In this document: positions 8,268-33,120 of the stretch, piece after piece
Numbering within the stretch: position 1 is the stretch's first letter
Layout of the letters: each line of letters opens with the position of its first letter
NCBI RefSeq assembly: GCF_024700885.2
Contig: NZ_CP117016.1
Reading direction: 5' to 3' (one strand)
DNA length: 64,000 bases
Source: Escherichia coli
Lineage (GTDB): Bacteria; Pseudomonadota; Gammaproteobacteria; Enterobacterales; Enterobacteriaceae
The notes under the pieces: generated by a model
What the model saw: the letters and a program-made list of their open reading frames with translations, nothing else
Told to the model about the DNA's origin: nothing
Databases searched by the model: none
Position numbers and translations under genes: made by a program

Positions 8268-8708
8268 TTACTTAATAACAGTAACCACAGCCACAAGCAC
8301 GGCCATCGCAGACAGGACAATACCTGTGAGTAACCAAGTCTGATTTGCAAATGATTTCTGAAGTTCAGTACGATGCTCAGCCATCTCAACTTTCAGAGAC
8401 TGGCGTAAATCAGCCATCTCAGACTTCAGGGATTGGCGAGATTCTGCCATCTCAAGCCTCAACCCTTCGCGAATCTCCAGTACATCAGATTTGGTAGCAA
8501 AGGATTCGCTTCTTGTGGTGAGAGTAATCAGGTTGTTTTTGATTTCAGTCACATCACTTTCCAGGCAACTGACCCGCCGTTCAAGGTCGTCATTCATGCC
8601 ATCACCTCCATCATTACCACTTCCTGTTACTTGGTTGTTGGATACATTATAGGCATTCTCTTTCTTTTTTCTGAACCGCGAAATATGTGCAACATTCTCT
8701 GCCATCAC
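8268..8708 (-). CDS. Prophage cargo: coiled-coil protein with C-terminal transmembrane anchor and three 11-residue tandem repeats
   Basis: 146-aa ORF (possibly shorter from an internal Met); EMAESRQSLKS/EMADLRQSLKV/EMAEHRTELQK repeats then hydrophobic tail WLLTGIVLSAMAVLVAVVTVIK; ATGA overlap with upstream gene. Confidence 0.55.
   Translation of the reverse strand: MMAENVAHISRFRKKKENAYNVSNNQVTGSGNDGGDGMNDDLERRVSCLESDVTEIKNNLITLTTRSESFATKSDVLEIREGLRLEMAESRQSLKSEMADLRQSLKVEMAEHRTELQKSFANQTWLLTGIVLSAMAVLVAVVTVIK
8378..8476. repeat. Three tandem 33-bp repeats inside the 8268-8708 gene
   Basis: Copies at 8378-8410, 8411-8443 and 8444-8476, read directly from the sequence. Confidence 0.8.
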
Positions 8709-9067
8709 TTCTCATCACCCTGCTTGCCTACCCAGTTCATAAAGGCCCGGGCCGAGTAACGATGAACAAACCCACATCTGTTACAGGTAAGTCGGAATTC
8801 ATAGTTATGGATATTTTCCCGATCATGTCCCTCATATCCCGGATACCCAGTAAATGGACCGATGTAATCAAGCATAACAAAAGTGCCTAAATCACACTCC
8901 TCAGCAGTTTTCGGCTCAGGCCCCACCTCAACAATATTCGTCAAATACATGTACATATCCGTATCGCCACACGACAAACATTTTTCATTCGTAGACGACT
9001 CATTGAGAAAACGCGCAAAATTATCGAGCGTTGCCATTCTTTTAAGCTCATCTAAATGAAACTTCAC
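8705..9067 (-). CDS. Prophage cargo: Cys-rich hypothetical protein (CLSCGD...CNRCG)
   Basis: 120-aa ORF starting 3 nt after the int stop, same strand, so likely co-transcribed with C-int. Confidence 0.5.
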   Translation of the reverse strand: MKFHLDELKRMATLDNFARFLNESSTNEKCLSCGDTDMYMYLTNIVEVGPEPKTAEECDLGTFVMLDYIGPFTGYPGYEGHDRENIHNYEFRLTCNRCGFVHRYSARAFMNWVGKQGDEK

Positions 9068-15703: not shown

Positions 15704-16663
15704 ATGAAAATTTGTATCGACGACGGCTCCACCAACATCAAGCTGGCATGGACTGAGAACGGCGAACGCCGCAACGCCATCAGCCCGAACAGCTTCAAGT
15801 CGGAATGGTCTGCGCCGTTCGGTGGCACGCAGCCCGCGAACTACATGCTTGATGGCGTGCGCTATGGTTTTGATCCGGTCAGCGATCGCTTTATCCAGAC
15901 GACCGACACACAATACCAGTACAGCGATGTGAATGTCATTGCCATTCATCACGCGCTGGTCAAATCAGGCATCACGCCACAGGAGGTGGATGTGGTTGTC
16001 ACCCTGCCACTGAGCGAGTATTTCGACACAAACGCACAGCCGGACATGGCCAACATCAACCGCAAAAAAGCAAACGTTATGCGCCCGGTGGAATACCAGA
16101 ACGGCGAAGCATTCACTATCCGTAATGTACGGGTTATGCCTGAATCCATTCCGGCTGGCTTTAAAGCACTGGCTGACATGAGTCCGTTTGAATCCCTGCT
16201 GATTGTGGATTTAGGTGGAACCACGCTGGATGTGGCAAAGGTTCAGGGACAACTGGCAGGTATCAGCCAGGTGTTTTGCGATCCACACGTAGGCGTTTCC
16301 CTGATGGCCGATGCAGTACTGTCGGTGATGGCCACTAACGGTATGCGTACCAGTCACCACATCGCCAATACCATTATCGAACATCGCCATGATGAAGCCT
16401 GGCTGCGCCAGCACATCCACAATGACGCGCATTACGCCAGCCTGATGGCGGTTATTCGTGAAAAGGAAGAAACACTGAAACAACGCGTGATCCGCGCGCT
16501 GGCGGGTTTTTCGGGTTACGGGCGGGTGATGGTTGTCGGTGGCGGGGCGGAGATTGTGGCACCCGCTATCCGCGAAGCCTGCGGAGTTAATGCGACTTTC
16601 ATCGCGGACGGGGTGCCACAGTTTGCTCTGGTTAATGGGCTGTACGCAATGGACAAGGAGTAA
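15704..16663 (+). CDS. ParM/StbA-like actin-family segregation ATPase
   Basis: 319 aa; IDDGSTNIKL, YSDVNVIAIHHAL, VMPESIPAG, LIVDLGGTTLD, VMVVGGGAE, LVNGLY match remembered R1 ParM blocks. Confidence 0.8.
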   Translation: MKICIDDGSTNIKLAWTENGERRNAISPNSFKSEWSAPFGGTQPANYMLDGVRYGFDPVSDRFIQTTDTQYQYSDVNVIAIHHALVKSGITPQEVDVVVTLPLSEYFDTNAQPDMANINRKKANVMRPVEYQNGEAFTIRNVRVMPESIPAGFKALADMSPFESLLIVDLGGTTLDVAKVQGQLAGISQVFCDPHVGVSLMADAVLSVMATNGMRTSHHIANTIIEHRHDEAWLRQHIHNDAHYASLMAVIREKEETLKQRVIRALAGFSGYGRVMVVGGGAEIVAPAIREACGVNATFIADGVPQFALVNGLYAMDKE

Positions 16664-16667
16664 ACCA

Positions 16668-16979
16668 ATGACGACACCAACCAGGCGGATAAGTTTCTAT
16701 CTGAAGCCTGCGGCCGTCAAGAACGAAAGCGAAGCATGCGCCTGGCTGGACAGCCTTACACCGGAAGCCCGCAAAAGCGGCCAACGCGTGGCTTTTCTGG
16801 CCGGGCTGGCACTTCTGAAAATGAATCCGGCAGAGGCTTACCGACTGGCTGCATGGGCTGACGATGAGGCGTTATCAGTGACACAAACCAGGACAGAACG
16901 CCCCCTGTCACAGCCAGTACCAACCGCACAGATAACCAGTCAGATGGCCGGAAATATCAGGGCGTTATTTCCTGAATAA
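16668..16979 (+). CDS. ParR/StbB-like centromere-binding adaptor
   Basis: RRISFYLKP...AFLAGLAL...IRALFP resembles R1 ParR; immediately downstream of parM-like gene. Confidence 0.65.
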   Translation: MTTPTRRISFYLKPAAVKNESEACAWLDSLTPEARKSGQRVAFLAGLALLKMNPAEAYRLAAWADDEALSVTQTRTERPLSQPVPTAQITSQMAGNIRALFPE

Positions 16980-17042: not shown

Positions 17043-17426
17043 ATGAGCAAAATCAACTATCAGGCATTACGTGAACGTTATTCACCTGCACCAGTACCAA
17101 AATGCCCTATTTGCTGCGAAGAAATGTCAATTCAGCGAATATCTGGAGCACAGGTTGTTTATGGCTGCTCCGGTTATGGTGATGATGGAGATTTCAAAAT
17201 TGGTCGAACTCTTGCCGACGAACATTATGAAAAATCACGCGTAACAGTGTTGGATGTCGGGGATCCTGAAGTATTGGCGCTACTTGATTGGCTGGAAACC
17301 AAAGACAACCGAATCGCTGAACTGGAAAAAATCGCCACTGACTATGCACTTAAATTCCAGAAAGCACAGGACGCATTAAAGTACGCCGCTTTGCTGCATA
17401 GCAGGTCAGCGCAGCTACAAGACTAA
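17043..17426 (+). CDS. Hypothetical protein with CPICC motif and C-terminal coiled coil
   Basis: 127-aa ORF in the variable region between A and cos. Confidence 0.45.
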   Translation: MSKINYQALRERYSPAPVPKCPICCEEMSIQRISGAQVVYGCSGYGDDGDFKIGRTLADEHYEKSRVTVLDVGDPEVLALLDWLETKDNRIAELEKIATDYALKFQKAQDALKYAALLHSRSAQLQD

Positions 17427-17516
17427 CTTAAAGCGGAAGATTAATACATGGTGAGTCGGGGTAATTTGTTTTTATCCCGACAAATAAACAAAAAAGTGGA
17501 CTATCTCTGTAGTATC

Positions 17517-18047
17517 TTATTCAGCATCGTCTCGTGCAGTCTGTGCATACGTCACAACAACGCCCAATGCATTAGTTTTCTTTTCAACATAGATAATATT
17601 GTCATATTCATAGTTACCATACGGATAGCAAATAAGAATATTTTTATGCAGATCGGGATCATCAACAAACGCTCCGGAACAGCTTCTTGAACTACCGGAT
17701 GTATACTCATACGGTGCAACATATGATGATGTTACTCCTGGTAAAAAATAAGTCACCATCATAAGAGGGATAATCAGGAATATCCCTGTAAGAATGCAAG
17801 AGCCAGCATAAACCTTCAGGTATTCCGACAGTCCTTTCCAGCCACTTTGCTTCACTACCCCCCTCTTCACCAGAAACAAGGAGAAGAAAAAGGACATACC
17901 CATACTACATAAGATGTAATAATTGGATATACGCGAATTAAGATATGTAATCCTGTAGATATCTGCCCTCCACCAGTAAAAGAGGAAAATAATCCCTAGC
18001 ACTGAAACAGTCATGCAAATCAAATAAGGATATGAATCTTTCTTCAT
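17517..18047 (-). CDS. Low-GC prophage cargo: small integral membrane protein
   Basis: 176 aa with 3-4 predicted TM helices, about 25-30% GC, in the P2 tin/old-equivalent position. Confidence 0.55.
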   Translation of the reverse strand: MKKDSYPYLICMTVSVLGIIFLFYWWRADIYRITYLNSRISNYYILCSMGMSFFFSLFLVKRGVVKQSGWKGLSEYLKVYAGSCILTGIFLIIPLMMVTYFLPGVTSSYVAPYEYTSGSSRSCSGAFVDDPDLHKNILICYPYGNYEYDNIIYVEKKTNALGVVVTYAQTARDDAE

Positions 18048-18049
18048 GT

Positions 18050-18577
18050 CTTGCGCTCATTAAAATTTCCCTGCTACGAACAAATTTACCATCCGTTTTT
18101 TGCGCAGAAAACAGCACGATGCACACTGCACGATAGTGCACAAATTTGCACAATTTTTTTGAACGACTTTTTACCCTTCCGGCCCGCATGGCGGCTGGAT
18201 CCGTCAAGGATCCGTGCGTGCACAAAAAAACGCGTTTTTTCTGCGCGCAGGTGACGGGGGAACAGCCCGCGTTTCAGGGGGTAAATAGTATTCCCTGAGC
18301 GATGTCGCAGCGACATAACAGAATGGCCATATTTCTCACGCTGAGCGTGAAAAAGATGTGAGGGCTTTTGATTTGATGGGGTGAAAGGTAAGGCCGTCAA
18401 AATCGAACTGAGGCGGTGAGAACATGCAGTCAGCGCGGTGGGATTGCGTAAGAGTCTGACCGTCGATGATGGTAATAAACAGGAAAGCGTCGTGAAATTA
18501 TCTGATTGATACAGGAGCTGGAGAGTCGGGGCATAAATTTTTTATGCCCCGGCGAAGCAGCGGACAAGCGAAGCGCG
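18050..18577. other. Non-coding region expected to contain the cos site and packaging signals
   Basis: By position immediately upstream of portal Q; contains TGCAC repeats (18120-18151), ggatccgt direct repeats and palindromes; exact cos ends not identified. Confidence 0.35.
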
Positions 18578-19624: not shown

Positions 19625-21375
19625 CAGAACTCCATAACCGTGAAACGCTCGTTTTCTCCTTCGCCGCCAATTGGTTCGTTAATGACAGCAAGCATGGTTG
19701 CCCACGCAAGGTCGCCGTGGCTGATCCCCCTCGCGCGGTCCGTTTCGTAAGTGATAAAGCCGCCCGGTGTTTTCACCTTACGCACGGCGTTAAAGGCCGC
19801 GACCAGCTCGCGTTCGGCGCGATCGTATTCCCACCGCCCGGCACGCATTATTTGCAGCATTTTCAGTACCAGCGACCGTTTTGATGACAGCGTGAAGGTG
19901 TACGGAATAGCGGCAGGGAAAAACCGTTTCACTATCTGATAAACAGCCTCCCCGTTCCCGCCCGTCACATCAATGCCGATGTGTTCCACGTTGTAGCGAC
20001 ACGTGAACTCTTCAATGACTCTGGCCTGTTCTTCAAACTCCAGCCCCTGAACGCGTCGCGTCTCCACCGTTCGAAAACGGCCACCAGGAACAGACGGAGG
20101 AACCACCACGGACACAGCGCCGCTGTCGCCGTTGCCACTGCTGCCGTTTGCGTCATACCCAATCCATACCGGACGATTCCCCATCGGGCGGGGAGCAAAA
20201 GGTTTCCAGTCTTTCCAGTCGTCGTATCCGTCAACACCGCAGCCAATCAGGATATTCAGGTTAAATGCCGATTCCCCTTCGCGGACAAACTCACACATAT
20301 AGAGATTGAGGAACTCGTCTTCGGTGTTTTCATCACGAATTTCGTCGATATCGGTGTGTTCCCAGCCGTGATTAACCACATCTTCCAGCGTGACAATTTG
20401 CCGCCACGTCCGGTCAGGGCAGATAAGCCCGTTATGCAGCGTTTTCCAGTCCACAGAAAAACGCTGGCGTTTATGCGTGGCCTTTTTCTCGTTCCAGCGG
20501 TCGCCGTTCCAGTAGGCGTATGCCTCGTGCGTTTCGGTGGATGGCGTGGAGAAGTAGGTGCGCCGCAGTCCGCTGAGGGTTGCCATAGCGCCAGCCACCT
20601 TGCGCAGTTCAGCAAAGCGACTGACCCAGAAAAATTCATCAAAATAAAAATTGCCCGTATAGGACTGTGCCGACGCAGCAGAAGTGCCGAGAAAATGCAG
20701 CTCTGCGCCGTTGGAGAGGATGATTTTATCGCCCCCTTTCAGCTCCACATCAACTTCAGCCGCGGCCTTCTGAATAATGCTTTTAAACTGGAACGCCTGA
20801 CGACGCGACGCAGACAAAAAAATCTGGTTACGCTGGTAAGGTTGCGCCACATCGTCACGCAGCGCCATCAGCAGCGCTTCCTGTGCAAAATACCAGGTCG
20901 CCCCAATCTGTCGGGATTTCAGGATCATCCTGTTACGTATCCCTGCTTCCCTGCAAAGGGTCAGGGAGTCAAACCAGCCCCGCTGATGCCACTCCAGCCT
21001 GCTGATGATTTTTTCCCGCAGTGCGGCAATCTGTTCCGGCGTGAAATGATTTTTAAGCTTTTTCGCCCGGCCTTTCTTTCCTGTGGCCGTCGCATCCGGC
21101 TGGCCATCATGCAGTTTTTTAAGCTGCCGGGTCAGCAGGTCTATTTCCTTGAAGTCACCACCTGTTTTATTCTGTTTTTCAGTGAGCTGGATGAGGCGCG
21201 CATCGATGGACTGCGTGACACGCTGCACGGGTGGCGTTTCATCCCACTGGTCGCGTTTTTTCCACGCATAAATCGTGTTCGGGTTTATTCCCATCAGACG
21301 TGATATTTCTGCGGGCGGATAACCCTGCCAGTAAAGTTGCCGCGCACGCTGGCGCACAAAAGCGTCCTGAATCAT
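19624..21375 (-). CDS. P: Terminase large (ATPase) subunit (P2 gpP-like)
   Basis: 583-aa ORF recognised as P2-type terminase ATPase; stop overlaps Q start. Confidence 0.85.
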   Translation of the reverse strand: MIQDAFVRQRARQLYWQGYPPAEISRLMGINPNTIYAWKKRDQWDETPPVQRVTQSIDARLIQLTEKQNKTGGDFKEIDLLTRQLKKLHDGQPDATATGKKGRAKKLKNHFTPEQIAALREKIISRLEWHQRGWFDSLTLCREAGIRNRMILKSRQIGATWYFAQEALLMALRDDVAQPYQRNQIFLSASRRQAFQFKSIIQKAAAEVDVELKGGDKIILSNGAELHFLGTSAASAQSYTGNFYFDEFFWVSRFAELRKVAGAMATLSGLRRTYFSTPSTETHEAYAYWNGDRWNEKKATHKRQRFSVDWKTLHNGLICPDRTWRQIVTLEDVVNHGWEHTDIDEIRDENTEDEFLNLYMCEFVREGESAFNLNILIGCGVDGYDDWKDWKPFAPRPMGNRPVWIGYDANGSSGNGDSGAVSVVVPPSVPGGRFRTVETRRVQGLEFEEQARVIEEFTCRYNVEHIGIDVTGGNGEAVYQIVKRFFPAAIPYTFTLSSKRSLVLKMLQIMRAGRWEYDRAERELVAAFNAVRKVKTPGGFITYETDRARGISHGDLAWATMLAVINEPIGGEGENERFTVMEF

Positions 21376-21529
21376 TGCTCCCCCTGAGTAATTACAGGAA
21401 GATTACCCGCGCGCGAAACTGTTCTCCTTAACCCCCTGTTCTGGCCGTTTTCTTACAACAAAAGCCCTTTGTATCAGCCTGTTACGCTTTGCCATCATGA
21501 CTGAAGAACCAGTCAGAGGGGCAAAAACT

Positions 21530-22366
21530 ATGGCTAATGAAAAAAAGACATCCCGCAAAAAGTTTCGCGTGGCTGTCTCCGGTGTAACGGCAGACGGGCG
21601 CGAAATCAACGGCGACATGCTGAAAGCTGCCGCCACCAGTTATAACCCGTCCGTTTATGGTGCACGTGTGAATATTGAGCACATCCTGTCACCACTCCCC
21701 GGTAGCGAGTTTTCCGCTATGGGCGATGTTGTGGGGTTGAGCACCGAAGACATAACCGATGGCCCGCTGGCAGGCCGCACGGCACTGTATGCCGAAATTG
21801 AGCCGACCGCTCGCATGATGTCCCTGCTTAACGATGGTAAAAAAATTTACTCCAGTATTGAGCTGGAACCACAGTCAACCATCACGGGAGGCCCTTACCT
21901 GCGCGGGCTGGCAATGACCGACACCCCTGCCAGCCTGGGCACGGAACGTCTGGCCTTTGCGGCACAACAACGTATGCAACTGATGACATTCAACTGTCAG
22001 CAGGGAGACGTGGCGATGTTTACCGCCGCTATGGAGTCAGAACTTATCGAACTCACCGAACAACGTCAGGAAGAAGGCACCCAGTGGTTTAACCGCGTTA
22101 TGGGGATTATTGGCCGTGGCCGCAAAGCGGATGACGCCAGTTTCTCCCGTATTCAGGAAGCGGTGGAAGGTGTCGCAACGTCACAGGCCGACATTATCGA
22201 CCGTTTTAATGCGCTGGAAACCCGCCATCAGCAGGACAGCCAGAAAATCACTTTACTGACCACAGAGCTGACAGCACTGAAGGAAAAACTGCGCACGCAG
22301 GACGGCGATCCGCAGAACCGGTTCACCGCAACGGGCGCAGCCTCCGATCAACTGGCTGACTTCTGA
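21530..22366 (+). CDS. O: Capsid scaffolding protein (P2 gpO-like)
   Basis: Start at MANEKK with RBS cagagggg; FRVAVSG..DGREI..YG.R.N.EH resembles P2 O N-terminus. Confidence 0.8.
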   Translation: MANEKKTSRKKFRVAVSGVTADGREINGDMLKAAATSYNPSVYGARVNIEHILSPLPGSEFSAMGDVVGLSTEDITDGPLAGRTALYAEIEPTARMMSLLNDGKKIYSSIELEPQSTITGGPYLRGLAMTDTPASLGTERLAFAAQQRMQLMTFNCQQGDVAMFTAAMESELIELTEQRQEEGTQWFNRVMGIIGRGRKADDASFSRIQEAVEGVATSQADIIDRFNALETRHQQDSQKITLLTTELTALKEKLRTQDGDPQNRFTATGAASDQLADF

Positions 22367-22389
22367 TAAGACAAAGGAGCAAATTTTTT

Positions 22390-23442
22390 ATGAATCTGGT
22401 GATGTCAGATATTACCCGCAACAAGCTGGGTTGCTATATGGCGCAGCAGGCGTCGCTTAACAACATCCCGGTATCTGCACTGGTATCGCGATTTACCGTG
22501 GAACCCTCGGTGCAGCAGCGTTTTGAAAACGCAGTAAAGGAGAGCACTGAATTTACAAAAAAAATTAACGTGTTCGGTGTGACCGACCAGAAAGGCGAAA
22601 AAATCCTCCTGGACACCACCGGGCCGATTGCGCGCACGAATACCAGTTATGACGGCACAAAACGCCGTAACCCGAATAACGTGGTTGATCTGAAAAACCG
22701 CAAATATCAGTGCGAACAGGTGAACTACGACACGTTTATTTCGTATCCGCAGCTTGATGCCTGGGCGGCACACCCTGATTTTCAGTCACGCGTCAGCACA
22801 CAGATTGCCCGGCAGGTGGCGCTTGACCGCATCATGATCGGTTTCAACGGCACGTCTCACGCAGATGAGTCCAACTTCAGCACCAACAAGCTGCTTCAGG
22901 ACGTTAACGTGGGATGGCTGGAGCACATCAGAACCGACGCCAGCGAGCGCGTAATGAATGACGTGACGCTGACCTCCCGCAACATGGACAACACCGTGGC
23001 GCACGCGGGTAAGTATGCGAACGCTGATGCACTGGTACAGGACGCGCGCTCATCCCTGCTGGATGAATGGCACAAGGAAGCTGACGACCTCGTGGTGATT
23101 ATGGGGCGCAACCTGTTTAACTCGCTGCGTCTGCCCGTGCTGAACAGCATCAGCGGCCAGAATCCCAATGCGGAATTACTTGCCGGACAGCTCATCCTGT
23201 CATCGCGCGCCATTGGCGGACTGGATGTATTCCTTGCGCCGTTCTTCCCGGATTCAACGATGCTGATCACCTCGTTCAACAACCTGTCGATTTACTGGCA
23301 GAAAGGAACAATGCGTCGCCTGATGAAAGACGAGCCGGAATACAACCGCATCGCCACCTACCAGTCCATCAATGACGCTTATGTCGTTGAAGACTATGGC
23401 AAGTGCGCGATGGTCACTGGCCTGAAGTTCGCCGACAGCTAA
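22390..23442 (+). CDS. N: Major capsid protein (P2 gpN-like)
   Basis: 350 aa; FTVEPSV, MIGFNG, VGWL, LSIYW, YVVEDYG blocks match remembered P2 N. Confidence 0.85.
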   Translation: MNLVMSDITRNKLGCYMAQQASLNNIPVSALVSRFTVEPSVQQRFENAVKESTEFTKKINVFGVTDQKGEKILLDTTGPIARTNTSYDGTKRRNPNNVVDLKNRKYQCEQVNYDTFISYPQLDAWAAHPDFQSRVSTQIARQVALDRIMIGFNGTSHADESNFSTNKLLQDVNVGWLEHIRTDASERVMNDVTLTSRNMDNTVAHAGKYANADALVQDARSSLLDEWHKEADDLVVIMGRNLFNSLRLPVLNSISGQNPNAELLAGQLILSSRAIGGLDVFLAPFFPDSTMLITSFNNLSIYWQKGTMRRLMKDEPEYNRIATYQSINDAYVVEDYGKCAMVTGLKFADS

Positions 23443-23487
23443 TCAACTCACGGCGGGCATCATGCCCGCCTGTAACGGAGAGAAAAA

Positions 23488-24288
23488 ATGATTACTCCTG
23501 CACAGCAACACTGGCAGAACGTGATGGCACAGCGCGCAGGCCGGGCGAATGAAGGCGTGGACCACGCCGCGCGTACCGCGCATGAAGAGGTGCTGTATCG
23601 TCTGCGTCTGGCACAGGCCCGACTTAAGGGCGTACAGGCCAGAAGCGCGAAAGCCGCCATCAAAAAAGAGTTGTTGCCGGACTTTTCCGGCTGGATTGAG
23701 GGAACGCTGGAGGCTGACGGCGGGCAGCAGGATGAAGTGATTGCCACGCTGATGGTGTGGGCAATTGACTGCGGCGATCTTCCGCTGGCGCTGCGTATTG
23801 GTGCGTATGTGGTCCGTCACAACCTCATCATGCCGGATAACTTTGGCCGTACTGCTGCCACGGTACTGACCGAAGAAATCTGCAACCCGGTACTGACGCA
23901 GGCCGGGACGGATGCCGACGCGGATTTGTCCGCCTTTATCGAACCACTGGACACACTTTGGGAAATTGTCGCCAACCAGGATATGCCGGACGAAGTGCGC
24001 GCCAAATTATGCAAGGCGTGCGCCTTTGCCCGCCGTAGCCTGAGCGATGCGGACAGCATGGCCTCATCACTGAAGCTGCTGCGCGAAGCGATGCACCTGA
24101 ACCCGAACGCAGGTGTGAAACGCGAGATTGCAACCCTTTCCCGCGCTCTGAAAAAAGCCGATTCCGCAGCCGCACCAGAAGATGCCAGCACACCGCAGGC
24201 GCAGAACGAAAGCAGCAAAAGTAAAAAGACAACGCGGAAGCCTGCAACACGAAAAACCACCGCGACGCAGAAGGCGAAGCGCGGTTAA
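23488..24288 (+). CDS. M: Terminase small/endonuclease subunit (P2 gpM-like)
   Basis: 266-aa ORF in the P2 M position with basic C-terminal tail. Confidence 0.75.
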   Translation: MITPAQQHWQNVMAQRAGRANEGVDHAARTAHEEVLYRLRLAQARLKGVQARSAKAAIKKELLPDFSGWIEGTLEADGGQQDEVIATLMVWAIDCGDLPLALRIGAYVVRHNLIMPDNFGRTAATVLTEEICNPVLTQAGTDADADLSAFIEPLDTLWEIVANQDMPDEVRAKLCKACAFARRSLSDADSMASSLKLLREAMHLNPNAGVKREIATLSRALKKADSAAAPEDASTPQAQNESSKSKKTTRKPATRKTTATQKAKRG

Positions 24289-24389
24289 CGACTGACCCCG
24301 TCAGCGGGCGGCGTGCGCGGTGTTCCGGTTTGACTCCGTGACCGTTTACACCGCGCACCCACCGCCCGATTTTTTCAGGAGTGAACCCC

Positions 24390-24884
24390 ATGAGTATGGT
24401 TGCCAGAACCAACCCCGGCCCCGCAGAGGACGACATCACCGATACCGATGATGGTGATACCCGTATTTCAGCGGGTGCATTCTGGCCGGATATTGTGCTG
24501 CGTGAGCTGCGTCTGGCGGTACGACTGCCGGGGCGCGTGACCACCTCCCGCCTGCTGCATACCGCCACCGGGGCCGTGGCACACGTTACCCGCGAGCTGG
24601 AAGCGTGGCAGCAGGAACAGCAGGCGGCTGGCCATCAGACGCTGGCCGATGTTCCGGCACCCGTAATTAACGGAGAAAGCGTCAATCTCTGGCGCTGGCG
24701 CAATGCTGTTTATACCGCCACACGCGCCCTGATTCTGGAGCGTTACCGCGATGCGGACACAACGGACAAGGGCGACCGCCGGGCGGACGCACTGGATATA
24801 CAGACATCGGATTTGTGGCGCGATGTGAGCTGGGCCATCTCTGACATTCTGTGCCGCCCGCGAATCTTTGCGGAGTTGTGCTGA
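24390..24884 (+). CDS. L: Head completion/stabilisation protein (P2 gpL-like)
   Basis: ATG at 24390 preceded by aggag; the track ORF starts at GTG 24381. Confidence 0.7.
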   Translation: MSMVARTNPGPAEDDITDTDDGDTRISAGAFWPDIVLRELRLAVRLPGRVTTSRLLHTATGAVAHVTRELEAWQQEQQAAGHQTLADVPAPVINGESVNLWRWRNAVYTATRALILERYRDADTTDKGDRRADALDIQTSDLWRDVSWAISDILCRPRIFAELC

Positions 24885-25084
24885 TGAAAGTGAAGGCACT
24901 GGAAGGCGACACCGTGGATTCGCTCTGTTTCCGGTACTACGGCACGACGCAGGGCGTCACCGAAAAGGTGCTGGATGCCAACCCCGGACTCTGTCAGCAG
25001 GTATTTCTGGACGCCGGGCAGGAAGTGGAGATGCCGGAGCCGGAGAAGAAGAAACGAGAAATGATTCAGTTGTGGGGGGAGTAG
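24884..25084 (+). CDS. X: Tail protein X-like small protein
   Basis: 66-aa ORF MKVKALEGDTVDSLCFRYYG, ATG overlapping the L stop (TGATG). Confidence 0.65.
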   Translation: MKVKALEGDTVDSLCFRYYGTTQGVTEKVLDANPGLCQQVFLDAGQEVEMPEPEKKKREMIQLWGE

Positions 25085-25086
25085 CA

Positions 25087-25410
25087 GTGAGCACCATTCA
25101 AACAGGGATCACAGAGCAGGTTATTGCATGGCTCTTTGACCACCTGCCAACGGTGTATGCAGTAGGCGCGGCGGTCAGCATTTCCGCGCTGATGAGTCTT
25201 TATGACGGACGAACACTGGTTCAGACCGTAACGGGATCGCTGGCGTGCGGCGTTCTTGCCATGGCCGTGGCCGGGTCGTTGCGCTTCTTCGGTTTTCCTG
25301 AAGATGCCGTGACGTTTATCGGCGCATCAATCGGTTTTATGGGGGCAGAGAAAGCACGCGACAAGGTTATTGCGGCCTTTAATCGCAGGGTGAAGGAGAA
25401 GGACGAATGA
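25087..25410 (+). CDS. Putative holin
   Basis: GTG start after strong RBS ggggggag; two hydrophobic segments and a charged C-terminus; directly upstream of endolysin. Confidence 0.6.
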   Translation: MSTIQTGITEQVIAWLFDHLPTVYAVGAAVSISALMSLYDGRTLVQTVTGSLACGVLAMAVAGSLRFFGFPEDAVTFIGASIGFMGAEKARDKVIAAFNRRVKEKDE

Positions 25411-25799
25411 GCAACACATTTAAATTCAGCAGCCGGAGCGAAAAGAATTTGCAGGGCGTAAATCCTGATCTGGTGAAAGTGACCCGACGGGCACTGGAAA
25501 TTTCGGAAGTGGATTTTGGTATCACCGAAGGGTTGCGCAGCCGTTACCGCCAGAAGCAACTTGTGGCCACAGGTAAGAGCCAGACCATGAACAGCCGCCA
25601 CCTTACGGGACATGCCGTGGATGTTGTGGCTTATATCGGCAGCCAGGTGTCATGGGAATGGCCGCTGTACGAAAAAATCGCAGCCGCATTCAGACAGGCC
25701 AGCCGGGAACTGAATATTCCGGTGGAATGGGGCGGCGACTGGAAGACCCTGAAAGACGGACCGCATTTTCAGTTACCACACGGAGCCTATCCGGCATGA
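25407..25799 (+). CDS. Endolysin, peptidase M15 (L-alanyl-D-glutamate peptidase) type
   Basis: 130 aa with SRHLTGHAVD zinc-binding motif; sits where P2 has lysozyme K. Confidence 0.75.
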   Translation: MSNTFKFSSRSEKNLQGVNPDLVKVTRRALEISEVDFGITEGLRSRYRQKQLVATGKSQTMNSRHLTGHAVDVVAYIGSQVSWEWPLYEKIAAAFRQASRELNIPVEWGGDWKTLKDGPHFQLPHGAYPA

Positions 25800-26203
25800 A
25801 GCTCTGGCCAACGCTTGGCGTCGCTTTCCTTCTGATTGTCGGATGGGGAACATCCATGCGTCTGTCATGGTCGCTGGGCCGGGAGAACGCCAGAAACGAA
25901 GCGCAGGCCAGCACCCTGAAACGTACCGCCGACACCCTGAATATCATCAGCGCCGGGGTACAGGATATGCAGCAGGTGCTGGCGCAACTCCGCGTGGAAA
26001 ATCAGCAACGCAATCAGGACGGAGAGGCAAGACGTGAACAGCTACGCAACGATATTGCAAAAGATGAATGCGCCCACGCTTTGCCTGACGCTCGTTTTAC
26101 TGACAGGCTGCGCAGGCACGCAGAACGCGCTACGGCCAGCGCCGTCAGTCCGGCTTATACCGCAGACGCTGACCATACCGGTAACGCCTCCCCCCTTCCC
26201 TGA
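25796..26203 (+). CDS. i-spanin (LysB/Rz-like)
   Basis: N-terminal TM segment then coiled coil; ATGA overlap with endolysin. Confidence 0.65.
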   Translation: MKLWPTLGVAFLLIVGWGTSMRLSWSLGRENARNEAQASTLKRTADTLNIISAGVQDMQQVLAQLRVENQQRNQDGEARREQLRNDIAKDECAHALPDARFTDRLRRHAERATASAVSPAYTADADHTGNASPLP

Positions 26204-26354
26204 CACTCCCACATGGGGAAATCTCGGTATATGGGGCGACCGCCTTCTGGATGCACTGGAAACCTGTAACGCGGATAAACGGGCCATTGAATTACTGGAA
26301 CAGCGCAGGCTGCAACGACTGAACAACGAGGACAACAACCATGCTGAAAACTGA
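26064..26354 (+). CDS. o-spanin lipoprotein (LysC/Rz1-like), overlapping LysB in another frame
   Basis: MNAPTLCLTLVLLTGC lipobox and Pro-rich mature region; overlapping spanin architecture. Confidence 0.65.
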   Translation: MNAPTLCLTLVLLTGCAGTQNALRPAPSVRLIPQTLTIPVTPPPFPDTPTWGNLGIWGDRLLDALETCNADKRAIELLEQRRLQRLNNEDNNHAEN

Positions 26355-26808
26355 TTCCCTGCGTGAAGCCATGACCCGTTCATGCCGATGGTGTCAGGCC
26401 AACCCGGAAAAATTCACCATTTTCGTGGAGAGCGGCAACATTGAAACGACCGGAGAAACGCCCTCGTTTGTTTACCGCTATCAGATGGTGATGTTTGTCA
26501 TGGATTACGCCGGGGAGCTGGACGACCTCACGTTGCCGCTACTGGCGTGGTTATCCGAAAATCAGCCACAGTTGTTGCTCAATCCGGAGCGTAATCAGGA
26601 CATCAAATTTTCCGCCGTTATCAATGACGATGACAGCGCCGATCTCCTGTTTACGCTCCCCCTGCGGGAACGCGTTCGCATTACGCGCAACAGTCAGGGC
26701 ACACCGCAGGCAGAACACCTGCCGGAGCCAAAACCCCGTCTGCCCTCTTCCGAAGGCGACTGGTCACATGTATTCCAGGATGTGACGTGGGGTGAAAGCG
26801 ATGGATAA
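26341..26808 (+). CDS. R: Tail completion protein (P2 gpR-like)
   Basis: 155-aa ORF in the conserved position. Confidence 0.7.
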   Translation: MLKTDSLREAMTRSCRWCQANPEKFTIFVESGNIETTGETPSFVYRYQMVMFVMDYAGELDDLTLPLLAWLSENQPQLLLNPERNQDIKFSAVINDDDSADLLFTLPLRERVRITRNSQGTPQAEHLPEPKPRLPSSEGDWSHVFQDVTWGESDG

Positions 26809-27436
26809 GGCATTCACCCGTGTGGATGAAACCTTTGAGGCCATCCGCGACAGCCTGAATCAGCAGGCCATCAATAACATCGCCAGAAAGCTGGCACAGG
26901 ATTTACGCCGCGCCCAGCAGGCACGTATCCGGTCACAGAAAGCGCCGGACGGGACCGCGTGGACACCTCGCAGACGCCGCGTAACCCGGATACAGGAGCG
27001 CATTCGCTTTATCTGGAATAACGAAGCACGCACGCTGAAAAACTGGCATCACGACACGGGGAAATACGGGCGAACCATTACCGGGTGGGATGAGGATAAA
27101 AACAATATCCGCACGTTTTACCGGGATGACATCGACCGTTTTCTGGAAATACGCACCCGGCGCATCAACCAGGACAGCACAAAGCGCGTCCCCATGTTCG
27201 TAAAACTGCGCACCGCCCGCTACCTGAAAGCCCGTGCAGATGCTTCCGGTGTGACGGTGGGTTACAGCGGCGTGGCCGCACGTATTGCACGCGTTCATCA
27301 GTTCGGTGAGCGCGATCAGGTTGCGCCGGGCATTTTCACCGATTACTCGGTACGTGAGCTGCTGGGTATCAGCCTGGCAGATGAACGCCTGATTTATAAC
27401 ACGGTGCTGGGCCGGATTGCGGAGGCTGTACGGTGA
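26801..27436 (+). CDS. S: Tail completion/virion morphogenesis protein (P2 gpS-like)
   Basis: ATG 26801 with RBS; a GTG at 26792 is an alternative start. Confidence 0.7.
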   Translation: MDKAFTRVDETFEAIRDSLNQQAINNIARKLAQDLRRAQQARIRSQKAPDGTAWTPRRRRVTRIQERIRFIWNNEARTLKNWHHDTGKYGRTITGWDEDKNNIRTFYRDDIDRFLEIRTRRINQDSTKRVPMFVKLRTARYLKARADASGVTVGYSGVAARIARVHQFGERDQVAPGIFTDYSVRELLGISLADERLIYNTVLGRIAEAVR

Positions 27437-28014
27437 GCGCAGAACTCATGCGACTGCTGAGCAACATCATCCGCACCGGGATCATCTCTGAAGTTGATGA
27501 GGAATCCTGGTGCGTGCGCGTTCGCAGCGGCGAACTGGAAACAGGCTGGTTGCGCTGGAACACCACGCGCGCGGGAGCCTTCAATGTGTGGCTGCCGCCA
27601 TCACCAGGCGAACAGGTGGTAATTGCCTGCATTGGCGGCAACCCGGAAACCGCCATGATAATTGGCAGCCTGTGGAGTGATGCCATTCCGGCCCCCGGCA
27701 AAAGCCTGAAAGAAATCGTGGTCAGCGCGCCGGATGGCGCGGTGTTCCGCTACGACGCGGCCGCAGGCGCACTGAGCGCCAGCGGCATGAAAACAGCCAC
27801 CCTGCAGGCATCCGTCAGCGTGACACTGGATACGCCCGTCGTGGAATGCACAGACCTTCTGAGAACGGCGACGCTTGACGTCACAAAAGGGGGAAAGATG
27901 AGCGGCAATATCACGCACAGCGGCGGCAATTTCACCTCAAACGGCATCACAGTGCATACGCATAAACACGGTGGCGTTAAAGGTGGCAGCGATTCGACAG
28001 GAGGCCCGCAGTGA
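27433..28014 (+). CDS. V: Baseplate spike protein (P2 gpV-like)
   Basis: 193-aa ORF from GTG; glycine-rich C-terminus; P2 V-like. Confidence 0.8.
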   Translation: MSAELMRLLSNIIRTGIISEVDEESWCVRVRSGELETGWLRWNTTRAGAFNVWLPPSPGEQVVIACIGGNPETAMIIGSLWSDAIPAPGKSLKEIVVSAPDGAVFRYDAAAGALSASGMKTATLQASVSVTLDTPVVECTDLLRTATLDVTKGGKMSGNITHSGGNFTSNGITVHTHKHGGVKGGSDSTGGPQ

Positions 28015-28361
28015 CAACCCGCTATACAGGAATGAACCCGGACGGAACGGGAAACCTGAACGATATGGAGCACCTGAAACAGTCAGTCAAGGACATCCTG
28101 ACCACCCCGCTGGCAAGCCGGGTTATGCGACGGGAATATGGCAGCCTTGTGCCTGATTTGATAGACGAACCCATGAATAACACCACGCGTCTGCAATGCA
28201 TGAGTGCTGCCGTGATTGCGCTGACACGATGGGAACCCCGCATTGCCCTGGATGCCATCGACGTTGTCTGGAAGGCAGGAGGCCGCGCCGGGGTGACGCT
28301 GTCGGGCACTGTCATGCAGACCATGCAGAATGTTGAATTAACCATCACGCTGAGGGAGTAA
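28011..28361 (+). CDS. W: Baseplate protein (P2 gpW-like)
   Basis: 116-aa ORF from GTG with RBS aggagg. Confidence 0.75.
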   Translation: MTTRYTGMNPDGTGNLNDMEHLKQSVKDILTTPLASRVMRREYGSLVPDLIDEPMNNTTRLQCMSAAVIALTRWEPRIALDAIDVVWKAGGRAGVTLSGTVMQTMQNVELTITLRE

Positions 28362-28364
28362 ATC

Positions 28365-29261
28365 ATGCCTGCCGTTGACCTTTCACAGTTACCGGAACCC
28401 GCCATCATCGCGGAGCCTGACTTTGAGGCAATTCTGGCTGACACAAAGGCCATGATGATTGCGTCCTATCCCGCCGAACAGCGTGAAGCCGTTTCCGCCG
28501 CGCTGGAGCTGGAATCGGAACCCCTTAACGTTATCGCTCAAACCATGTCGTTTCGTGAAATGCTGTTACGCCAGCGGGTCAATGAGGGTGCACGCGCCTG
28601 CATGCTAAGCCACAGCGCCGGGACAGACCTGGACAACCTCGCGGGCAATATGAACACAAAGCGCCTGGTTATCACTCCGGCAACGGATACCACCGACGCA
28701 GTGATGGAAAGTGACACCTCGCTGAGACTACGGGCGCAACGGGCATATGACGGTCTGAGTGTTGCTGGCCCGTCAGGTGCATACGAGTATTTTGCACGCA
28801 GCGCCAGCGGTCTGGTACGCGATGCGCGGGCCATCAGCCCGTCTCCGGCCAACGTGACGGTTTCCATCCTGTCCACTGAGGGCGACGGCACAGCAACGGA
28901 GGCGTTGCTTAATACCGTTCGCGCCGTTCTGAATGCAGAGCATACCCGCCCGGTGGCCGACCGCCTGACCGTACAGAGTGCCAGAATCGTGACATGGCGG
29001 CTGAATGCAAAACTGTACTTTTACCCCGGCCCGGAATCCGAACCTATTCTGGCCGCGGCGGAATCGTCATTCAGGAAGTGGCTGGCTGAACAGGGGCTTA
29101 TCGGTCAGGACGTGGCGTTGTCCGCCATTGCTGCCGCACTTCATGTACACGGCGTGCAACGCGTGGAGATAATCGAACCCACACAGAATATGGCCATCAG
29201 CGACATACAGGCGGCGCGCTGTGAGTCATTCACCATCAGCGAAGGTGGGCGTAATGAGTAA
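28365..29261 (+). CDS. J: Baseplate wedge protein (P2 gpJ-like)
   Basis: 298-aa ORF in the conserved position. Confidence 0.8.
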   Translation: MPAVDLSQLPEPAIIAEPDFEAILADTKAMMIASYPAEQREAVSAALELESEPLNVIAQTMSFREMLLRQRVNEGARACMLSHSAGTDLDNLAGNMNTKRLVITPATDTTDAVMESDTSLRLRAQRAYDGLSVAGPSGAYEYFARSASGLVRDARAISPSPANVTVSILSTEGDGTATEALLNTVRAVLNAEHTRPVADRLTVQSARIVTWRLNAKLYFYPGPESEPILAAAESSFRKWLAEQGLIGQDVALSAIAAALHVHGVQRVEIIEPTQNMAISDIQAARCESFTISEGGRNE

Positions 29262-31976: not shown

Positions 31977-32593
31977 TGGCATTCAGAATGAGTGAACAAT
32001 CACGTACTGTAAAAATTTATAACCTGCTGGCCGGAACTAATGAGTTTATTGGTGAAGGTGACGCATATATTCCACCTCATACAGGGCTGCCAGCTAATTC
32101 TACAGATATCGCCCCACCGGAAATTCCTGCTGGCTTTGTGGCAGTTTTTAACAGTGAAAATGAATCGTGGAATATTGTTGAAGACCATCGTGGTAAAACG
32201 GTCTATGACGTGGCATCGGGGGACGCGTTGTTTATTTCTGAGCCCGGACCGCTACCAGAGAATGTCACCTGGTTGTCGCCAGCAGGGGAGTATCAGAAGT
32301 GGGACGGCGTATCCTGGGTGAAGGATGAGGAAGCAGAAAAACTGTTTCGGATACGGGAAGCGGAAGAGAAAAAGGCAAGGTTGATCCAGGAAGCAACAGA
32401 TAACATCGCAATTCTGCAGGATGCAGTTAATCTTGAAATAGCAACAAACGAGGAAAATTCACAACTGGATTCCTGGAGAAAATACAGAGTATTAGTGAGT
32501 AGAATTGACACCAGTACAGCTCCGGATATCGTATGGCCAGAGCTGATGAATCAGGGTTATGTGCGGGAGGACGAGCAGATAACTTCAGACTGA
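31976..32593 (+). CDS. G: Tail fibre assembly chaperone (P2 gpG-like)
   Basis: 205-aa ORF starting on the H stop (TAATG). Confidence 0.8.
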
Positions 32594-33120
32594 AATTTAG
32601 TGATGAATGTTGAATCATCAGGAATATCATGCAATACCAATGCATGAGCACCTATTGTGACATTGTTTCCTATACGCACTTTGCCACCAAGAATGGTGGC
32701 ATTACAACCAATGGTCACATTATGTCCTATAACAATATCCATATCATTAAAATCACCACGCAGCCCAATAGTTACCCCTGGTTTTATTGAACAATTTTCA
32801 CCGATTGTTACTTTGTGACCGATAACAACACTGTTGAGATAAGAAATATCAAAGCCTTTCCCTATATTTACAGTTAAAGGGACTGTTACATTATATTTAT
32901 CAAGAATGAAACGTTCTATTTTCCCCGCAATCTTCCGACAGTATCCGCCTTTATCAAAAAGGTACTTGGCTATGCGCCACCAAAATAAATAACGAACTCT
33001 TCTATGTTTTATTGCGCGAACAATTGCCTTTCGCCAGGAGAAAGGACGCTCGCTACCGATTACTTCATAGTGAATACAATCTTTAAGTTCATTAATATTC
33101 ATATCTCTATTATTCAGCAT
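32557..33120 (-). CDS. Low-GC cargo: hexapeptide-repeat (left-handed beta-helix) acetyltransferase
   Basis: 187 aa with repeated [LIV]GxxxxIG hexapeptides; about 30% GC; between G and the tail module. Confidence 0.7.

Follow-up and report, generated by a model that had tools for sequence, protein, structure and literature searches.

An M15-type endolysin and overlapped spanins form the lysis cassette of a P88-like, P2-family prophage in Escherichia coli

Here, we describe a four-gene lysis cassette at positions 25087-26354 of the window, i.e., the whole stretch of 64,000 nucleotides of E. coli DNA that was analysed. The cassette encodes a holin, an M15 endolysin, an i-spanin, and an o-spanin. 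The prophage that carries it is located in the E. coli chromosome between btuC and ihfA/pheT, and the entire 64-kb window matches E. coli E-1246 with 100% identity. Around the cassette lies a full P2-like gene set from the integrase to ogr. Head-completion, X, R, S, and baseplate genes of the phage flank the four genes, with tail gene X as the upstream neighbour (gpX, PF05489, 8e-21) and tail-completion gene R as the downstream neighbour (gpR, PF06891, 3e-40). In Pfam, PHROG, and PDB searches, all four products match lysis families far above chance, and in the alignment of relatives the variable sites in each gene are biased to codon position 3. A sequence-only reading had proposed a lysis cassette with an M15 peptidase endolysin and spanins, in which a GTG-initiated holin candidate precedes a 130-aa protein of the L-alanyl-D-glutamate peptidase type carrying the motif SRHLTGHAVD, followed by an Rz-like i-spanin. 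Each of these functional calls is supported by independent family searches, as detailed below gene by gene.

The first gene (25087..25410, plus strand) encodes a 107-aa holin of the lambda S family (class I type). Its GTG start codon at 25087 is preceded by the Shine-Dalgarno sequence GGGGGGAG at 25074-25081, 5 nt upstream; this GTG is also used by PGAP and in the P88 RefSeq record, and it is kept in 53 of 53 relatives. The protein matches Pfam PF05106 Phage_holin_3_1 (E=1.1e-19, 71.1 bits with a cut-off of 23.8) and PHROG 126 holin/anti-holin (1.7e-35), while the score on the stricter equivalog TIGR01594 holin_lambda, 54.5 bits, is marginally under the cut-off of 55.05. Identity to lambda S itself is 23% over 60 aa (E=3e-5). 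The holin contains two strong hydrophobic segments (approximately residues 19-39 and 43-65), a weak third one (approximately residues 67-87) that includes E72/D73, and a charged C-terminal tail (residues 88-107); its variable sites at codon positions 1/2/3 number 4/6/23. A lambda-type dual start is absent from the gene: the GTG is single, the N terminus MSTIQTG contains neither Lys nor Arg, and there is no second start nearby, the next Met being residue 36, which has no Shine-Dalgarno sequence. A dual start is typical of lambda and is not a defining feature of the Pfam Phage_holin_3_1 family. The cassette also contains no lysA-like antiholin.

The second gene (25407..25799, plus strand) encodes a 130-aa protein that is predicted to be a single-domain LAS/M15C zinc L-alanyl-D-glutamate endopeptidase. 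It matches Pfam PF13539 Peptidase_M15_4 (8.1e-12, 46 bits with a cut-off of 25) and PHROG 465 endolysin (5.1e-77), and no NCBIfam model was above threshold. Among solved structures, the best matches are 23ri (2.1e-48), ChiX (5opz, 2.5e-48), and LysECD7 (8q2g, 2.7e-46), with weaker matches to the T5 L-alanyl-D-glutamate peptidase (2mxz, 8.8e-23) and Ply500 (2vo9, 3.6e-7). The peptide SRHLTGHAVD (residues 63-72, 25593..25622) corresponds to the LAS signature SxHxxGxAxD and includes two Zn ligands, His65 and Asp72; the catalytic set further comprises Arg44 (25536-25538), Asp117 (25755-25757), and His120 (25764-25766). Thus, all five catalytic residues are conserved, i.e., the His-x6-Asp and C-terminal His that bind Zn, the catalytic acid, and the substrate Arg. 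In a gapless alignment, R44/H65/D72/D117/H120 correspond to R47/H68/D75/D120/H123 of ChiX, and H65/D72/H120 also match H62/D69/H117 of LysECD7. In ChiX, the aligned residues are the Zn ligands and the catalytic Asp, the D120A substitution abolishes activity, and muropeptide HPLC identified the protein as an L-Ala-D-Glu endopeptidase (PMC5778951). Over approximately 125 aa, the endolysin has 62% identity to ChiX, the assayed protein, and 63% identity to the deposited structure 23ri; on this basis, we infer that it would cleave the L-Ala-D-Glu bond. No signal, SAR, or other hydrophobic segment was found in the endolysin, and it is therefore regarded as holin-dependent.

The third gene (25796..26203, plus strand) encodes a 135-aa i-spanin with an N-terminal transmembrane anchor at approximately residues 4-21 and a long periplasmic helix. 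This call is supported by the match to PHROG 214 Rz-like spanin (1.1e-41), by topology, and by position. No curated Pfam or NCBIfam threshold was reached, and there was no match to PF03245 (Phage_lysis); the score on Pfam DUF2570, 20.6 bits, is below the cut-off of 26.6, yet the RefSeq name is still DUF2570 domain-containing protein. Similarity to lambda Rz is weak (E=0.003). The hydrophobic N terminus comprises approximately residues 3-21, and a single-sequence AlphaFold model predicts helices at residues 4-94 (pLDDT >90 for residues 31-90) and 99-116 and a non-helical tail of low confidence (pLDDT 53-59). The protein has a single periplasmic Cys residue, C92, and the variable sites in the non-overlapped part of its gene number 9/10/31 at codon positions 1/2/3.

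The fourth gene lies in the +1 frame of the i-spanin gene and encodes an o-spanin of the LysC family (26034 or 26064..26354, plus strand). Candidate starts are GTG 26034, TTG 26055, and ATG 26064. The GTG has a Shine-Dalgarno sequence, GGAGAGG at 26021-26027, with a 6-nt spacer; judged by this sequence, which is better than that of ATG 26064, GTG 26034 would serve at least as well as a start. Positions 26097..26111 encode the lipobox LLTGC, with the codon of the predicted lipidation Cys at 26109-26111; the position given for it previously, 26064, is that of the ATG only. The segment LVLLTG/CA fits the PROSITE-style lipobox pattern and has Ala, not Asp, at position +2. The predicted mature lipoprotein consists of 81 aa with this Ala at +2, nine Pro residues, and one Cys residue besides the lipidated one. 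Both spanins, therefore, contain a periplasmic Cys (C92 in the i-spanin, the second Cys in the o-spanin) that is available for predicted intermolecular disulfides. The o-spanin matches Pfam PF23793 LysC (5.9e-13, 49 bits with a cut-off of 27), a model on which P2 LysC itself scores 64.9 bits, and the profile aligns from residue 12, i.e., before the lipobox Cys. It also matches PHROG 3001 and 456 Rz-like spanin, of which PHROG 3001 (70 aa) covers residues 32-96 only; no NCBIfam model was above threshold for either spanin. By BLASTP, the o-spanin is 31% identical to P2 LysC (E=6e-5), and the lipobox Cys stands opposite a Cys of the P2 protein. Of 80 IMG/VR relatives, 76 retain an intact ORF, and the signal-lipobox peptide ending in LVLLTGC is present in every one of the 78 relatives with a recovered N terminus.

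The stop codon of the o-spanin gene at 26354 is located 151 nt beyond that of the i-spanin gene at 26203, and the o-spanin gene is therefore overlapped and not embedded. In the classification of Summer 2007 and Kongari 2018, an overlapped o-spanin gene has its start within the i-spanin gene, in another frame, and its stop downstream of that gene (PMC6139136); the two genes have this two-component arrangement and not the embedded one of the lambda Rz/Rz1 type. Of the earlier description of an embedded, out-of-frame lipoprotein o-spanin, the +1 frame and the lipoprotein nature are borne out by the lipobox and the LysC match, while "embedded" has to be replaced by "overlapped". The dual-coding stretch (26034..26203, plus strand) encodes the C-terminal tail of the i-spanin in one frame and the signal peptide, lipobox, and Pro-rich region of the o-spanin in the other. 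Variable sites are least dense in the overlap (18 of 140 positions in the analysed part, 26064-26203, versus 50 of 268 in the i-spanin-only part and 45 of 137 in the o-spanin-only part), and within it hardly any variation, one site, falls where codon position 2 of the i-spanin frame coincides with position 1 of the o-spanin frame. Both reading frames are constrained within the spanin overlap.

The holin/endolysin (25407-25410) and endolysin/i-spanin (25796-25799) junctions are ATGA overlaps, and the L/X junction upstream is a TGATG overlap at 24882-24886. The sequence-only reading had extended this pattern to every junction; it does not apply to X/holin, where TAG-CA-GTG leaves a 2-nt gap, or to o-spanin/R, where the overlap is 14 nt (ATG 26341, TGA 26352-26354). 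A search of the P/O intergenic region, upstream of the operon, revealed no exact P2-type late-promoter site, TGT-N12-ACA, and the closest candidate in this region has a 15-nt spacer; late, Ogr-dependent expression of the cassette is, therefore, an assumption. A promoter and terminator consensus scan of 21000-29000 returned fewer sites than shuffled controls, the scan of the same interval revealed nothing equivalent to the attenuator located within lysC of P2, and an Rfam search of the cassette found nothing. Minus-strand ORFs at 25221-25613, 25690-25947, and 26042-26383 and a plus-strand ORF at 25843-26037 have no PHROG match and are considered spurious; the four plus-strand genes fit the substitution pattern, and these alternative ORFs were therefore rejected.

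Over the whole 2.1 kb, the locus has 98-99% DNA identity to P88 and the other Xuanwuvirus phages P884B11, 500465-2, 503458, 520873, Chuche, and PhiR44_2. The order X, holin, M15 endolysin, DUF2570 protein (i-spanin), o-spanin (where its gene is annotated or not), R is common to the Xuanwuvirus phages, and the differences are point substitutions only. For practical purposes, the cassette is the same element as that of P88 and its relatives; in the Chuche record, the holin is started at an internal ATG, unlike at GTG 25087 here. P88 is mitomycin-inducible and yields infective phage (PMC5285337). The articles on P88 (PMC5285337) and on the diversity of P2-like viruses contained nothing specific about the lysis genes. 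Cassette DNA is present in approximately 1100 of 5426 complete E. coli genomes. In the Citrobacter phage Shae_phiSM and at the IMG/VR locus L086, a gene for a GH108 muramidase with a PG_binding_3 domain replaces the M15 gene, while the holin and spanin flanks are otherwise approximately 95-97% identical to the cassette. This swap inside near-identical flanks marks the slot as the endolysin slot, and it illustrates neatly the natural exchange of endolysin modules among sister phages.

Altogether, we estimate at approximately 95% the probability that 25087-26354 is the canonical holin-endolysin-spanin cassette of a P88-like (Xuanwuvirus, Peduoviridae) prophage of the P2 family. As such, the cassette is already known: it belongs to described phages, and RefSeq names all four genes. 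It is a textbook lysis module of a prophage type that is among the most common in E. coli, and structures and assays of its enzyme family already exist. The specificity of the enzyme could nevertheless be read differently, because PF13539 carries the title "D-alanyl-D-alanine carboxypeptidase" and the Zn site is common to all LAS enzymes, so that the motif alone leaves specificity unfixed. A VanY/VanX-like role of the 130-aa protein, as a D-Ala-D-Ala carboxypeptidase or dipeptidase instead of an L-Ala-D-Glu endolysin, is, however, very unlikely given that its closest solved relatives (62-63% identity, E ~1e-48) include an assayed L-Ala-D-Glu endopeptidase, ChiX (PMC5778951), that LysECD7 and the T5 L-alanyl-D-glutamate peptidase are also among the matches, that PHROG 465 is an endolysin family, and that a GH108 muramidase occupies the slot in sister phages.

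The long +1 lipobox ORF might likewise be questioned as a gene, leaving a short LysC only or no o-spanin. RefSeq/PGAP places lysC at 26157-26354, i.e., 65 aa from an ATA start without signal peptide or lipobox, the o-spanin CDS is missing from both phage feature tables examined (P88 RefSeq and Chuche), and the PHROG 3001 match is restricted to residues 32-96. However, the codon at 26157 is ATA, which is not a recognised start codon, in 53 of 53 relatives, and a product without a signal peptide would not reach the outer membrane. Moreover, the Pfam LysC alignment from residue 12, the pairing of the lipobox Cys with a Cys of P2 LysC, the conserved signal-lipobox peptide, and the intact ORF in 76 of 80 relatives all argue for the long form, making the short one, or the lack of an o-spanin, highly improbable. 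Annotation is documented to overlook o-spanin genes or to misplace their starts, with 196 and 64 such cases, respectively, in 528 systems (PMC6139136), and we regard the truncated RefSeq lysC in P88-type prophages as another case of this known annotation problem. A further reading regards the whole cassette as a system for protein release that has been domesticated and is non-lytic or semi-lytic, i.e., a type 10 secretion system like Serratia chiWXYZ. The parts list is indeed that of chiWXYZ, with a single-start holin of the lambda S family, an endopeptidase 62% identical to ChiX, an outer membrane lipoprotein, and a spanin-like protein anchored in the inner membrane, and type 10 secretion systems are considered descendants of phage lysis cassettes (PMC13284979). 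Yet the cassette, placed between gpX and gpR and with overlapping start and stop codons, is part of the late morphogenesis operon of an entire P2-like prophage, and the same DNA occurs in free, inducible phages, whereas chiWXYZ has no adjacent phage genes and is located next to its chitinase cargo; no cargo gene lies near the cassette. Domestication is, thus, extremely unlikely here. Less directly, the Xuanwuvirus-type combination of a single-start holin without a known antiholin and a ChiX-like endopeptidase might represent the phage stock of enterobacterial, chiWXYZ-like type 10 secretion, and a subpopulation of lysogens might express the cassette and release host or prophage products not only at burst; we consider this proposal an improbable one.

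Under the preferred reading, that of a canonical phage lysis cassette, and drawing on what is known of these protein families, we suggest the following scenario. The cassette would be made late in infection from within the tightly packed late operon of head and tail genes. The lambda-S-type holin would then build up in the inner membrane and open large holes at a programmed time. Through these holes, the soluble, signal-less 130-aa zinc endopeptidase would enter the periplasm and cut the L-Ala-D-Glu bond of the peptidoglycan stem peptide. The inner membrane i-spanin and the outer membrane lipoprotein o-spanin are expected to form a periplasm-spanning complex that would be freed upon destruction of the wall and would disrupt the outer membrane, presumably by fusion with the inner membrane.

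In P2, Y-K-lysA-lysB-lysC occupies the same slot of the late operon between X and R. The P2 spanins have the same overlapped +1 architecture, and P2 LysC is homologous to the o-spanin described here. However, the P2 holin Y belongs to Phage_holin_3_2 and the holin here to Phage_holin_3_1, lysA is absent here, and no homology was detected when the holin, endolysin, and i-spanin were tested against P2 Y, K, and LysB. The earlier contrast with P2, which has lysozyme K where the M15 protein is found here, agrees with these comparisons: P2 K is of the lambda R type (55% identical to lambda R) and has no relation to the M15 protein. In comparison with P2, the holin, endolysin, and i-spanin appear from their sequences to be non-homologous replacements, with the o-spanin (LysC) as the only homologous component. 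The cassette shares with lambda S-R-Rz-Rz1 the order holin, endolysin, spanins and a holin of the same Pfam family and length (107 aa). By contrast, lambda S has a Met-Lys-Met dual start that the holin here lacks, the lambda endolysin is a transglycosylase and not a peptidase, and the lambda o-spanin is embedded and of the Rz1 family, whereas the o-spanin here is overlapped and of the LysC family.

ChiX (5OPZ), LysECD7 (8Q2G), EndoT5 (2MXZ), and Ply500 (2VO9) belong to the same LAS/M15C enzyme class as the endolysin, which shares with its LAS relatives a size of approximately 130 aa, the Zn ligands, and the catalytic Asp and Arg; its identity to ChiX and 23ri extends through its entire single domain. 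Ply500 has an extra cell-wall-binding domain, unlike the single-domain endolysin here. ChiX operates in a chromosomal secretion system, whereas T5 and ECD7 are lytic phages. The type 10 secretion locus chiWXYZ of Serratia marcescens is built from the same types of component, four in all, among them the single-start, lambda-type holin ChiW and a closely related endopeptidase, a likeness that is based on sequence for the endolysin and ChiX and on description for ChiW, ChiY, and ChiZ. The spanin-like genes of chiWXYZ are individually dispensable for secretion. While chiWXYZ is located outside a prophage and beside chitinase genes, the cassette described here lies within the virion genes of an inducible phage type.

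Four close-packed ORFs on the + strand fill positions 25087-26354 of the window, and our analysis supports the sequence-only reading of them as a lysis cassette; the observation itself is confirmed save for three details, i.e., the embedding of the o-spanin, the position of its lipobox and the coupling of every junction. The cassette is already known: phages described before carry this same element, and RefSeq has a name for each of its four genes. The window matches the E. coli E-1246 chromosome at 100% identity, and a complete P2-like prophage spans ~8.2 kb to ~42 kb of it, between btuC and the ihfA/pheT region. In this prophage, genes for integrase, replication endonuclease, portal, terminase, scaffold, capsid, gpM, gpL and gpX lead up to the cassette, while those for gpR, gpS, baseplate, fibres, sheath/tube, tape measure, gpD and ogr lie 3' of it. 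Escherichia phage P88 and further Xuanwuvirus members share 98-99% identity with the 2.1 kb around the cassette; P88 is a P2-like phage that is mitomycin-inducible and infects new hosts (PMC5285337). Among 5426 complete E. coli genomes, ~1100 carry the same 1.4 kb. Alternative ORFs on both strands of the cassette region gave no family match.

ORF 1 (25087-25410, +; 107 aa), put forward as a GTG-initiated holin, begins at GTG 25087 with its Shine-Dalgarno, GGGGGGAG, 5 nt 5' of the start codon, and has hits to Pfam Phage_holin_3_1 (lambda S family; E=1e-19) and PHROG 126 (2e-35). It equals lambda S107 in length, aligns with it weakly, and has two clear hydrophobic segments, a third weaker one and a highly charged C-terminal tail. 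Because the holin has a single start and no Lys or Arg at its N-terminus, the dual-start antiholin device of lambda is absent; the cassette also has no lysA-like gene. In the record of phage Chuche, an internal ATG, Met36, serves as the holin start (L002 1893-2111, window 25192-25410); this model loses the first transmembrane segment, and no Shine-Dalgarno lies 5' of the Met36 ATG.

ORF 2 (25407-25799, +; 130 aa) is a single-domain LAS/M15C peptidase, with matches to Pfam Peptidase_M15_4 (8e-12) and the PHROG 465 endolysins (5e-77), and carries the expected SRHLTGHAVD motif at residues 63-72. In a PDB search, it matched ChiX (5OPZ; 2.5e-48, 62% identity), 23ri (63% identity), LysECD7 (8Q2G; 2.7e-46), the T5 L-alanyl-D-glutamate peptidase (2MXZ; 9e-23) and Ply500. 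In a gapless alignment, R44, H65, D72, D117 and H120 fall on R47, H68, D75, D120 and H123 of ChiX, which include three Zn ligands and an Asp; the D120A substitution abolishes ChiX activity, and muropeptide analysis identified ChiX as an L-Ala-D-Glu endopeptidase (PMC5778951). The LysECD7 ligands H62, D69 and H117 likewise match. No hydrophobic segment was found in the endolysin, which is therefore cytoplasmic and dependent on a hole-forming holin. The gene recurs in unrelated phages (9NA, Sasha, phiP27, ST64T, etc.) at 70-75% DNA identity. In two sister prophages, Citrobacter phage Shae_phiSM (L005 1466-2011) and an IMG/VR locus (L086 1459-2004), a 181-aa GH108 muramidase with PG_binding_3 replaces the M15 peptidase, while the flanking holin and spanin genes are ~95-97% identical. 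This clean swap and the recurrence of the endolysin gene are ordinary module shuffling.

ORF 3 (25796-26203, +; 135 aa) is the anticipated Rz-like i-spanin, matching PHROG 214 (1e-41) and, below threshold only, Pfam DUF2570. It has a membrane anchor at the N-terminus and one periplasmic Cys; a single-sequence AlphaFold model gives one long confident helix (residues 4-94); its second helix is short, and the tail is non-helical and of low confidence. ORF 4, in the +1 frame of ORF 3, can start at GTG 26034, TTG 26055 or ATG 26064 and ends at 26354 (+). It matches Pfam LysC (6e-13) and is 31% identical to P2 LysC with the lipobox Cys aligned. The mature o-spanin would comprise 81 aa, proline-rich and with one further Cys, and Ala at +2 predicts sorting to the outer membrane. 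The out-of-frame lipoprotein of the sequence-only reading stands, as does its LLTGC lipobox, which is encoded at 26097-26111; position 26064, given for it in that reading, is an ATG codon instead. The gene is not embedded: because it extends 151 nt beyond the ORF 3 stop, its architecture is overlapped as defined by Kongari et al., with P2 as an example (PMC6139136). ATGA overlaps couple holin to endolysin and endolysin to i-spanin; however, the gpX/holin junction is TAG-CA-GTG without overlap, and the o-spanin/gpR junction is a 14-nt overlap with neither ATGA nor TGATG. In relatives L074-L079 and L082-L085, the C-terminal ~20 residues of the o-spanin differ (103 aa, ending ...AELDKRIAELTHQTGVTQ; ~2239-2550), and the DNA between o-spanin and gpR is also different.

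The RefSeq/PGAP lysC (26157-26354, +; 65 aa) has ATA as its first codon and leaves out the signal peptide and lipobox, and the P88 RefSeq and Chuche records have no CDS at the o-spanin; therefore, the longer model proposed from sequence is better than the public annotation. PHROG 3001 (70 aa) appears to have been built from truncated lysC models. Among the possible starts, ATG 26064 has no recognisable Shine-Dalgarno. We infer that GTG 26034 is the favoured start, because the consensus GGAGAGG lies 6 nt upstream at ideal spacing, as in P2 lysC, and because this start adds a Lys to the signal n-region, aligned with Arg2 of P2 LysC.

Conservation was assessed in 53 gapless relatives (50 distinct sequences) drawn from 80 IMG/VR loci. 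Variable sites at codon positions 1/2/3 number 4/6/23 in the holin, 8/7/32 in the endolysin and 9/10/31 in the non-overlapped part of the i-spanin. The dual-coding stretch is least variable (18/140 sites vs 50/268 and 45/137 in the flanking parts), with only one variable site at i-spanin position 2/o-spanin position 1. All start codons are invariant among the aligned relatives, the signal-lipobox peptide is conserved, and 76 of the 80 loci retain an intact o-spanin ORF.

While identities, residues, membrane signals, architecture and conservation come directly from these data, the steps of lysis are modelled on the protein families. The holin would trigger late and permeabilise the inner membrane; the endopeptidase would then reach the periplasm and cleave L-Ala-D-Glu bonds; and the i-spanin/o-spanin complex, released from the murein mesh, would disrupt the outer membrane.

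Several other features of the window were observed. A 384-aa ORF (40262-41416, -) between the gpD-like gene and ogr has a GC content of 0.31-0.37 vs ~0.55 in its flanks, has no match in Pfam, PHROG, PADLOC or PDB, and occurs in only 19/5426 complete E. coli genomes vs 1100 for the lysis cassette; it resembles the variable cargo of a prophage hotspot and may be a defence gene or moron. Within the integrated prophage, a ParM/StbA actin-like segregation ATPase and a Plasmid_stab_B partner (15704-16979, +) lie downstream of the replication endonuclease, and ead/Ea22-like and frameshifted hypothetical pseudogene fragments (17043-18092) lie between these partition genes and the portal gene. Two ORFs beside the integrase (8268-9067, -) match only PHROGs of unknown function. 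A hexapeptide-repeat acyltransferase (32557-33102, -), on the opposite strand right after the tail-fibre assembly gene, is likely a moron and possibly a surface-polysaccharide acetyltransferase. In host DNA outside the prophage, Rfam Phe_leader, the pheST attenuator, scores 74 bits (46275-46399, -). The gpS-like virion morphogenesis protein (26801-27436, +) has 211-214 aa vs 150 aa in P2, and its best-scoring Pfam Phage_tail_S stretch covers residues 124-206 only. Its gene overlaps gpV directly, whereas P2 has a terminator/orf30/PV promoter interval.

P2 carries Y-K-lysA-lysB-lysC in exactly the slot held by the cassette here. The claim that an M15 peptidase takes the place of P2 lysozyme K proved correct: K is 55% identical to lambda R and not homologous to the M15C peptidase. 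Likewise, the P2 holin Y (Phage_holin_3_2) and i-spanin LysB are not homologous to the Phage_holin_3_1 holin and PHROG 214 i-spanin, and P2 has the antiholin-like lysA, which this prophage lacks. By contrast, the LysC-family o-spanins are homologous. Serratia has a type 10 secretion system, chiWXYZ, with the same parts list; however, chiWXYZ lies outside any prophage, beside its cargo, while the cassette described here sits among virion genes.
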